From a virus (lineage: Duplodnaviria > Caudoviricetes): 64,000 bases of DNA. The notes below the pieces were generated by a model. It was not told where the DNA came from. It was given only the letters and a program-made list of their open reading frames with translations, and searched no databases. Location of the stretch: the IMG/VR virus record IMGVR_UViG_2595698685_000001, positions 32,001 through 96,000 of that record; one strand, 5' to 3'. Of this stretch, positions 10,539 to 10,895 are shown piece by piece. The translations under genes and the position numbers were made by a program. Within the stretch, counting starts at the first letter, position 1. Each line of letters begins with the position of its first letter.

Positions 10539-10895
10539 AGTTTTAAGGTAGCTCTATCCTGATAGCAGCTCAGAGGTACTAGAGGCTATATCTTATGAGC
10601 CTATAAACCTTGACCTGAGATTTGATAAATGCTTTGTGTTTTGTGCTTTTTGGTTTAAACTTTTATCTCTAAACTTTCAGCGCTAACCTTTAAACTTTCA
10701 TCTATGAGCTTTTAAGGGTCTGCTTCGCAAAGTAGACAACAATAATATCATACTGTATAGGACACAAATCCTAATCGGTATTGATAATCTCTATTAGATT
10801 ATGTTTTGGTTAGCCACTTAGTTTAACCTCCGGTGTGGCTAGTTAGAGGTAAGATATTTTTAGTTTCACTAAAAGAACAGAACTACCTTAAAACT
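10539..10895 (-). ncRNA. ~357-nt structured RNA with pseudoknot and 7-nt repeat array
   Basis: 22-bp closing stem 10874-10895/10539-10560, all three non-WC positions are G:U on the minus strand. Confidence 0.8.
10629..10712 (-). repeat. 12 x 7-nt degenerate tandem array, consensus AAAG-NNN
   Basis: AAAGCTC ATAGATG AAAGTTT AAAGGTT AGCGCTG AAAGTTT AGAGATA AAAGTTT AAACCAA AAAGCAC AAAACAC AAAGCAT. Confidence 0.85.

Follow-up and report, generated by a model that had tools for sequence, protein, structure and literature searches.

Why should a phage carry twelve heptamers in perfect phase in a short gap between two genes, and do the variable letters inside them say anything? The question is raised by a 64,000-nucleotide (nt) stretch of viral DNA, positions 32,001 to 96,000 of IMG/VR record IMGVR_UViG_2595698685_000001 (hereafter the window, whose coordinates are used throughout), where a heptad array of 12 in-phase units with the consensus AAAG-N-U-Y occupies 10629..10712 on the minus strand. 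The phage genome is 122,024 bases long and T5-like with direct terminal repeats. Among named phages the closest is Pectobacterium phage DU_PP_V (Demerecviridae), which matches 54% of a 4-kb query at about 85% nucleotide identity. A first-pass annotation had dealt with the variable triplets of this array; the larger conserved structured RNA of which the array is the centre, and which is coupled to the protein gene upstream, was missed. Our preferred interpretation, held with moderate confidence, is that an oligomeric RNA-binding protein, probably the one encoded upstream, uses every heptad as one site along the centre of a structured RNA.

The array exceeds chance and is unique in the 122-kb phage genome. 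Read without gaps on the minus strand from 10712 to 10629, its first half is AAAGCTC, ATAGATG, AAAGTTT, AAAGGTT, AGCGCTG, AAAGTTT and its second half AGAGATA, AAAGTTT, AAACCAA, AAAGCAC, AAAACAC, AAAGCAT. Matching AAAG at period 7 gives 42 of 48 here, against 27 at the best unrelated genome position and a genome mean of 13.4 (standard deviation 3.25). The three-unit pattern AAAGNNNAAAGNNNAAAG, with at most one mismatch, has six matches in the genome, five of them inside the array, compared with two for a reversed control pattern. Tandem Repeats Finder sees the array as fragments only (period 7, 2.9 copies; period 14, 2.6 copies) because the units are degenerate. The array sits in a 396-nt gap between a gene for a 212-residue protein (10922-11560) and one for a SleB-like hydrolase (10073-10525), with the local genes and 18 transfer RNA (tRNA) genes all on the minus strand. 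No homologous RNA in the sample has a longer strictly periodic run than these 12 units.

The triplets that follow the four-letter core run CTC ATG TTT GTT CTG TTT ATA TTT CAA CAC CAC CAT, and the earlier description of them is accurate on the minus strand from 10712 to 10629: the first eight are N-U-N, the last four C-A-N, and read as codons they give LMFVLFIF-QHHH. That they are non-random also holds, and homologues reveal in what respect. We collected 189 in-phase units from 39 non-redundant homologous RNAs, picking units by matches at positions 1-4 only. Those four positions read A 0.99, A 0.87, A 0.80 and G 0.80; position 5 is essentially free (U 0.39, A 0.23, C 0.23, G 0.15; A or U together 62%; 0.07 bit); position 6, whose base played no part in the choice of units, is U at 0.87 against a background of 29% (1.05 bit); and position 7 is a pyrimidine in 74% (C 0.40, U 0.34; 0.35 bit). 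The family unit is A-A-A-G-N-U-Y, and the N-U-N pattern is one conserved U followed by a pyrimidine. With U6 kept, the triplets are neither invariant nor wholly random from homologue to homologue, while unit number varies from 4 to 16 per RNA (median 9; 4.3 +/- 1.9 in shuffles).

Two sub-classes of binding unit had been suggested as the simplest interpretation of the array. Binding units are indeed favoured by the comparison, but the two classes are unequal, N-U-N being family-wide and C-A-N restricted to 8 of 39 RNAs. C-A-Y units followed by AAAR occur in those eight against 3.8 +/- 1.8 in shuffles and in the distal third of the array only, the carriers being the window, the group of Salmonella phage 41, and viral-contig loci L178, L199, L172 and L209; C-A-N is thus a weakly marked, distal second unit type of limited lineages. 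The alternatives offered alongside, a discontinuous guide pairing with a target or a non-contiguous code, have nothing in their favour beyond the orderly appearance of the triplets in the window, and we give them next to no chance of being right. Searched against the phage genome for gapped complements, the triplet series reaches at best 22 of 36 outside the array itself, no excess over the maximum of shuffled orders (22.6 +/- 0.9); the self-match, trivially 36, is equalled by 0 of 200 shuffles. Pairing with the array at 7 of 7 positions is seen for none of the anticodon loops of the 18 phage tRNAs; the lowest shuffle fraction was 0.02 (tRNA-Trp), the only one of the 18 below 0.05. The hydrophobic 'codons' arise because U is fixed at the middle triplet position, the first and third triplet positions are near-random, and the spacing between units is not fixed. 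The triplets carry no message.

Spacing is informative in itself. Successive units lie 7 nt apart in 118 of 219 cases, with 8 nt (30/219), 14 nt (30/219) and 6 nt (11/219) making up much of the rest, and in T5 and Yersinia phage phiR2-01 the interval slips to 8-9 nt in places. In a Deinococcus metagenome-assembled genome of 68% GC, the heptads downstream of the protein gene include CAAGCCT, GAACGCT, CAACGTT and CAAGGCT; the units there read CAAGNYU, with AAG or AAC, then N, Y and U, kept at period 7. Tolerance of 8-9 nt together with a short core that is kept while its neighbours drift looks like a series of protein-RNA repeat sites, and unlike base-pairing or phased DNA sites.

The conserved non-coding RNA around the array is about 370 nt long (~10546..10921, minus strand), as delimited by the DU_PP_V alignment, RNA contigs from T5 and a covariance model. 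It begins shortly after the upstream gene's stop codon and stops just short of the next gene's ribosome-binding site, its 3' end in the window being 8-20 nt ahead of the hydrolase ribosome-binding site. DU_PP_V retains the array and most of the gap at a mean column identity of 81%. A MAFFT alignment of 23 diverse members (A3) was used for an RNAalifold consensus and to build covariance model R1, which matches the window at 10555-10754 (minus strand) with 136 bits. The consensus contains one helix, P1, and no conserved pair inside the array. P1 is a stem of 5 bp (10615-10619 with 10569-10573) that encloses hairpin P3 (10584-10601) in a 3' domain at 10566..10624, running CAAAUC, the stem with its hairpin, and CUG on the minus strand. 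Across the 23 sequences 99.1% of 115 cells are paired, 29 cells show double changes against 7.0 +/- 2.2 when shuffled, and the covariation score of 0.793 compares with 0.217 in shuffles (0 of 500 reach it) and with at most 0.243 in slid controls. In 47 distinct aligned R1 matches, an alignment fitted to the model, 98.6% of cells are paired. Six G.U cells against a single mismatch favour the gene-sense strand as the one that folds.

Upstream of the array the RNA contains a 5' H-type pseudoknot (10811..10850, minus strand), found by a scripted search with shuffle control. In the window its first stem (S1) pairs 10845-10850 with 10826-10831 and its second (S2) pairs 10835-10841 with 10811-10817, joined by the linker UAAACUAA. 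Of 41 distinct loci, 24 have this topology 5' of the array, compared with 18 of 205 shuffles; at a stricter score the figures are 22 of 41 and 4 of 205. Across loci S1 has 4-6 bp, S2 5-8 bp and the linker is UAAA(C), with stem sequences that differ by lineage; S2, for example, is TAGCCAC/GTGGCTA in the window, GCGGTT/GACCGC in T5-like phages and CGAGGC/GCCTCG in the phage-41 group. This evidence consists of the scripted search and its shuffles, as the MAFFT alignment made for the region (A5) was structurally inconsistent and so yields no formal pair count.

The upstream gene (10922..11560, minus strand) encodes a helical protein of 212 residues, within the family range of 200-220, belonging to PHROG 1491 (phrog_1491 match, E 6e-71) and homologous to T5.085. 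R1 was matched in 45 sources, namely the window, phages pVp-1 and 41, and 42 viral-contig loci, and in 45 of 45 the match lies downstream of a PHROG 1491 gene and co-oriented with it (39 at 42 bits or more, 6 at 22-35 bits). In the window the phrog_1491 protein match is followed directly by the R1 match, with both the pseudoknot and P1 located. A profile-guided scan of viral contigs returned 360 stretches encoding the protein, the best 80 of which were examined; their downstream DNA together with the window gave 41 distinct clusters, after L191 (gene start offset) and L209 (frame) had been left out. In nearly all clusters a hairpin comes first, AAAG-like heptads follow in a run, and after AAAUC there is a stem whose complement, followed by CUG, lies about 45 nt further on.

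The layout recurs behind the T5.085 gene of T5 and in Yersinia phage phiR2-01. The corresponding 442-nt gap of T5 is matched in 449 phage records (437 covering at least 80% of the query, 430 at 90% identity or more), and most of the 60 matches listed coincide with no annotated feature. Salmonella phage 41, unrelated to T5 and reached through a partial match, has the protein gene, then an RNA-like region with an array, then a tRNA. T5 and pVp-1 have RNA and protein together, and two other Demerecviridae, KPN4 and PM135, have neither. By tblastn the 212-residue protein has matches in 728 of 50,697 phage records, including phages of Salmonella, Escherichia, Pseudomonas, Vibrio, Bacillus, Klebsiella, Erwinia, Lactococcus and Clostridioides (Peptoclostridium). 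A scan with one Deinococcus protein gave one locus, and the 3' domain in the Deinococcus metagenome-assembled genome is UCAAAUCCUGG…CCAGGCUG.

Two oddities of this RNA deserve mention in their own right. At L181:1938-2011, in a viral contig, a tRNA gene is placed between the pseudoknot domain and the heptad array; either the RNA is split in two by tRNA processing or the tRNA remains embedded. In Salmonella phage bastian (MT074459.1, 76487-77467) the match to the T5-type RNA region falls into two pieces and overlies an annotated homing endonuclease gene, apparently a mobile gene inserted into the element.

The stretch is present in contigs of public RNA libraries made from T5 infections. Of the RNA-labelled runs, 13 contain half or more of the words sampled from the T5 stretch, and four runs from four studies were placed on L157, a T5 genome copy in which the stop codon of the PHROG 1491 gene ends at 1839. 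In run X8, an RNA immunoprecipitation sequencing (RIP-seq) library, contigs cover 166-1871 at depth 328, 1843-1902 at 3,833, 1873-2207 at 831 and 2219-3033 at 477, with adapter abutting 1842/1843. RNA-seq run X9 has one contig from 243 to 2192 followed by adapter and the next from 2229, while the single contig of X1 and the contig of X5 from 166 both read through the whole stretch. The contig breaks of X8 and X9 fall at the edges of the conserved element. X8 has one more start with adapter abutting it, at 166, which is 28 nt before the start codon of a metallopeptidase gene and would fit a 5' end in the sense direction. We also note that the 60-nt contig 1843-1902 of X8, running from the RNA 5' end into the pseudoknot, has about ten times the depth of the upstream gene contig; the excess hints at a stable 5' fragment or at preferential capture.

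These data bear on whether the heptads could be tandem single-strand endonuclease sites, serving either to process the RNA from a tRNA-island transcript or to soak up a host nuclease as a target or decoy. RNase E prefers R-N|W-U-U, which A-G|N-U-Y resembles, and the high frequencies of U6 (87%) and of A or U at position 5 (62%) fit its '+2 U' rule. The T5 RNA end at L157:1843 falls in AAUAA|UUUAA just past the stop codon with no promoter-like sequence upstream, which suggests processing, and the element sits among tRNAs that themselves need processing. However, the '+2 U' rule leaves the most conserved letters, A1 (99%) and A2 (87%), unexplained, and contigs spanning the whole array argue that it is not cut to pieces. 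Phage lineages of Bacillus, Lactococcus and Deinococcus, bacteria not known to have RNase E, retain the array too. We consider an RNase target improbable.

The strict 7-bp period over the 12 window units, next to a protein of no assigned function, also invites the thought that the heptads are iterons for a DNA-binding protein, in an operator, a centromere-like site or an origin; the omega repressor of plasmid pSM19035, for one, binds 7-bp heptads. We rate such a DNA element as very improbable indeed. The flanking stems covary as RNA helices with G.U pairs on the gene-sense strand, the orientation to the gene is invariant in all 45 sources, the region is present in RNA-library contigs, and the 8-9 bp slips seen in T5 and others would rotate the sites around the DNA helix.

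A further possibility is that the array is a passive spacer, a low-structure A-rich linker between pseudoknot and 3' domain whose periodicity is a relic of repeat expansion. The wide range of unit number (4-16), in-phase runs that are often short, the tRNA gene between pseudoknot and array in L181, and the like heptamer microsatellites common in viral contigs would all agree with this. A mere linker would however be expected to drift in sequence and phase, and A1, A2, A3, G4 and U6 are kept where the flanks are unalignable, the 68%-GC Deinococcus copy included; we think it doubtful that the array is no more than a linker. As to the microsatellites, many of the contigs L224-L303 contain homogeneous intergenic ones that reach 18 copies, among them (AAAGATT)n, (AAAGTTC)n, (AAAGGTT)n and (AAAGCTC)n; several stand just upstream of start codons.

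We return to protein binding, whose mechanism might run as follows. Each heptad, with its AAG core plus U/Y, would be the docking place for one subunit of an RNA-binding protein that is repeated or oligomeric; the PHROG 1491 protein encoded upstream is the most probable candidate, and RNA and protein would form a ribonucleoprotein whose size is set by unit number (median 9, here 12). Binding of the array by protein, the identity of the partner and the role in a particle are what we infer from unit conservation, spacing and linkage. In this RNA the array apparently forms the single-stranded centre and would probably be unpaired in vivo.

Several observations weigh against this interpretation. 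The heptad pattern is not specific to the element: AAAGNTY three times followed by AAAG occurs in 109 viral-contig stretches, and of the 80 with DNA only 8 have the protein gene upstream, most of the others being homogeneous heptamer microsatellites; a reversed control pattern occurs in at least 138 stretches. L264 (~1100-1530) carries a heterogeneous array of 58 AAAG/AATG/AACG-N-Y-Y units over about 400 nt with no PHROG 1491 gene within 1.5 kb. As exact-pattern arrays mostly come without the protein gene, heptads by themselves do not identify the element, which is defined by the gene, the pseudoknot and P1. When the RNA is folded as a single sequence, the array comes out about half paired, with a mean pairing probability of 0.50 against 0.60 and 0.72 in the flanks. 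The protein has no recognised RNA-binding domain, is near-neutral (median isoelectric point ~5.8), and finds only generic helical bundles as fold matches. The T5 homologue T5.085 is scored 'Not Fit' in supplementary file 7 of a T5 CRISPRi-ART knock-down screen (PMC11879866), its knock-down causing no defect on an ordinary K-12 host, so that there is no phenotype to guide function. Lastly, contigs cannot prove ends, strand or abundance, and DNA carry-over is possible in such libraries.

L264 may represent a different heptad element. An 11-unit array of the same style is found in L248, from the same sample.

The linked protein itself is widespread. A profile search returned 3,555 cluster representatives (50% identity) at E<=0.001 and 1,711 at E<=1e-30, and the best 150 listed all have 202-222 residues. 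The AlphaFold model (predicted local distance difference test, pLDDT, 88.8; predicted template modelling score, pTM, 0.63) shows long helices packed as a bundle, and a small sheet formed by the N-terminus, residues 85-94 and the C-terminus. Residues conserved family-wide include two 'SNAxT' motifs (S80 and N81; S203, N204 and T207) and basic K14, R70 and K74, which judging by their positions along the chain would cluster near the sheet. No Pfam family was found at E<=0.01, no PADLOC model, and no function from NCBIfam or ESM Atlas, the latter giving a weak, sub-threshold link to DUF6847/DIP1984. Foldseek against the PDB gave nothing at E<=0.001, and the best VIA-align match, 3kdq (Z 9.6, root-mean-square deviation 8.8, 151 residues aligned), is a protein without known function. 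The PHROG/GenBank label 'tail fiber protein' looks unfounded given the early, tRNA-island setting of the gene, the helical-bundle model and the 'Not Fit' score of the T5 homologue.

How does the array compare with known RNAs of repeated sites? In principle it resembles those of TRAP, HutP and CsrB, and it is a member of none. TRAP binds about 11 (G/U)AG cores with 2-3-nt spacers in the single-stranded Bacillus trp leader, one ring subunit per core. Short purine-rich cores and short free spacers are common to both, and TRAP tolerates spacer length within about 1 nt; the differences are a core of AAAG plus U6, a period of 7 rather than 5-6 nt, and a place behind a helical protein gene rather than in an attenuator. 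TRAP (TrpBP, PF02081) has no match in the 122-kb phage genome, with a positive B. subtilis control. HutP sites are UAG-N4 repeats in two sets of three read by a homo-oligomer. Taking A2-A3-G4 plus 4 nt gives the same 7-nt period, but the core is AAG and not UAG, units are contiguous and number 9-12, and there is no terminator or antiterminator context; HutP (PF09021) likewise has no match in the phage genome. CsrB and RsmZ are also non-coding RNAs with many short motif copies that bind many copies of one protein, as would be supposed here. Their GGA sits unphased in hairpin loops, whereas the array units are contiguous, phased, apparently unpaired and without GGA, and the partner is presumably phage-encoded; no CsrA was found in the phage genome.

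The T4 gene 32 operator has a 5' pseudoknot, an unstructured A/U-rich tract with UUAAA-like repeats, and a cooperative protein with a site of about 7 nt. The layout here is similar, a pseudoknot preceding an apparently unstructured repeat tract; the T4 site, though, is directly upstream of the regulated start codon, whereas in the present RNA the linked gene comes first and the array is followed by different things in different phages, and its presumed partner is not a single-stranded DNA-binding protein of the oligonucleotide/oligosaccharide-binding (OB) fold. GOLLD and ROOL (10.1101/2024.12.08.627333) are likewise structured non-coding RNAs without an assigned function, large and located in phages and prophages beside tRNA genes; at ~370 nt the present RNA is much smaller, matches neither in Rfam, has a repeat array and is strictly gene-linked. 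Two other candidates fit poorly: type III toxin-antitoxin systems, in which tandem ToxI-like repeats of ~34-36 nt lie upstream of a ToxN/AbiQ-type endoribonuclease gene (here the period is 7 nt, the array is downstream, and there is no Pfam or PADLOC match), and the heptad operator (WATCACW) of the Omega, ribbon-helix-helix (RHH) type, given a different sequence, RNA covariation with G.U pairs, fixed orientation, 8-9-nt slips and RNA contigs.

The structured RNA appears to be undescribed, though multi-site protein-binding RNAs as a kind are not new. With Rfam 15 the whole window at gathering threshold gave only 16 tRNAs; positions 10450-10990 at E<=10 gave two chance matches to long non-coding RNAs (16 and 14 bits); and 14 homologous loci at E<=0.1 gave tRNA-type matches and, below threshold, Plastid-ycf2 (antisense to tRNAs) and mir-3149, none of them on the element. 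Three T5 genome records have no RNA annotated in the 442-nt stretch. Our literature search, whose scope did not extend to the 1980s T5 'stable RNA' literature, found nothing on this RNA, T5.085 or PHROG 1491.

The remaining features of the RNA are smaller hairpins on the minus strand. A GC-rich, terminator-like hairpin followed by UUUU (10890..10913), directly 3' of the stop codon, is kept in DU_PP_V; a consensus terminator scan found no terminator, missing this hairpin because its T-run is too short, and a promoter scan gave two plus-strand promoter-like matches only. The hairpin TAATCTA-ATA-GAGATTA (10785..10801) is common to T5-like phages, and the hairpin pattern TAATCTANNNGAGATTAT in viral contigs gave mostly chance matches outside T5-like genomes. 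In the variable region just 5' of the array lies TAGGA-TTTGTG-TCCTA (10758..10773), and some hairpin stands at this site in most homologues. A small terminal hairpin, CUAUC-AG-GAUAG (10554..10565), ends the conserved element on the 3' side.

Beyond the module the neighbourhood varies. No recurrent neighbour family was found among 50 flanking open reading frames, and tRNA genes flank the module in most of 14 loci scanned. The carriers are large virulent phages, and the usual place of the module is within their tRNA islands. What follows the RNA is a hydrolase gene here, an annotated promoter in T5, and other genes or tRNAs in other phages. The SleB-like cell-wall hydrolase gene of the window (Pfam Hydrolase_2; 10073..10525, minus strand) is a neighbour in this lineage only, outside the conserved module, and a viral-contig search with its protein gave two weak, unrelated loci. 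Further window neighbours, all on the minus strand, are a PHROG 'tRNA amidotransferase'-like protein of 149 residues (9615-10064), a DUF4326 protein (9346-9618) and an Rv2179c-like 3'-5' exoribonuclease (11817-12497). This gives the neighbourhood an RNA-metabolism flavour, but other lineages do not conserve it.

The tRNA island itself, of 18 tRNAs at 492-8981 (minus strand), includes three tRNA-Lys (two CUU, one UUU), Gln-UUG, Glu-UUC and Tyr-GUA; ARAGORN adds Ala at 658-736 and Met at 6089-6164, absent from the Rfam gathering list, and omits Rfam's match at 578-651. In Klebsiella phage KPN4 (L012:1903-3200; MN101228.1, 69842-71139) a GC-rich stretch of ~1.3 kb with no annotated gene and a tRNA-like segment follows the hydrolase gene, and by eye it resembles a large structured RNA of the GOLLD/ROOL kind.

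What might such a ribonucleoprotein do for the phage? The tRNA-island setting and dispensability on the laboratory host lead us to guess at an accessory role tied to the island, for example in counter-defence or in RNA metabolism or processing. T5 tRNAs reportedly allow escape from PARIS and retron-Eco7, by which tRNA islands are said to have been shown to be counter-defence loci. One could go further and imagine a new phage ribonucleoprotein in which the helical protein polymerises or assembles as a ring on the AAAG-N-U-Y track, with the pseudoknot and the 3' domain as nucleation points, and which acts as a tRNA-island accessory in thousands of lineages, perhaps shielding against or decoying defences that target RNA or tRNA, or organising the processing of the tRNA-island transcript; in this full form the idea is speculative and rather unlikely to hold.

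T5 is a classic model phage, yet in three of its genome records this intergenic stretch is left without an RNA annotation. The evidence gathered here defines a gene-plus-RNA module across phages of enterobacteria, Vibrio, Pseudomonas, Bacillus, Lactococcus and Clostridioides, together with a Deinococcus genome. If our interpretation is true, an RNA track that is read in phase and by sequence, and served by a small protein of its own, would make a new and experimentally tractable system of protein-RNA recognition, and the module gives a point of entry to the unexplained part of phage tRNA islands that lies outside the tRNAs.

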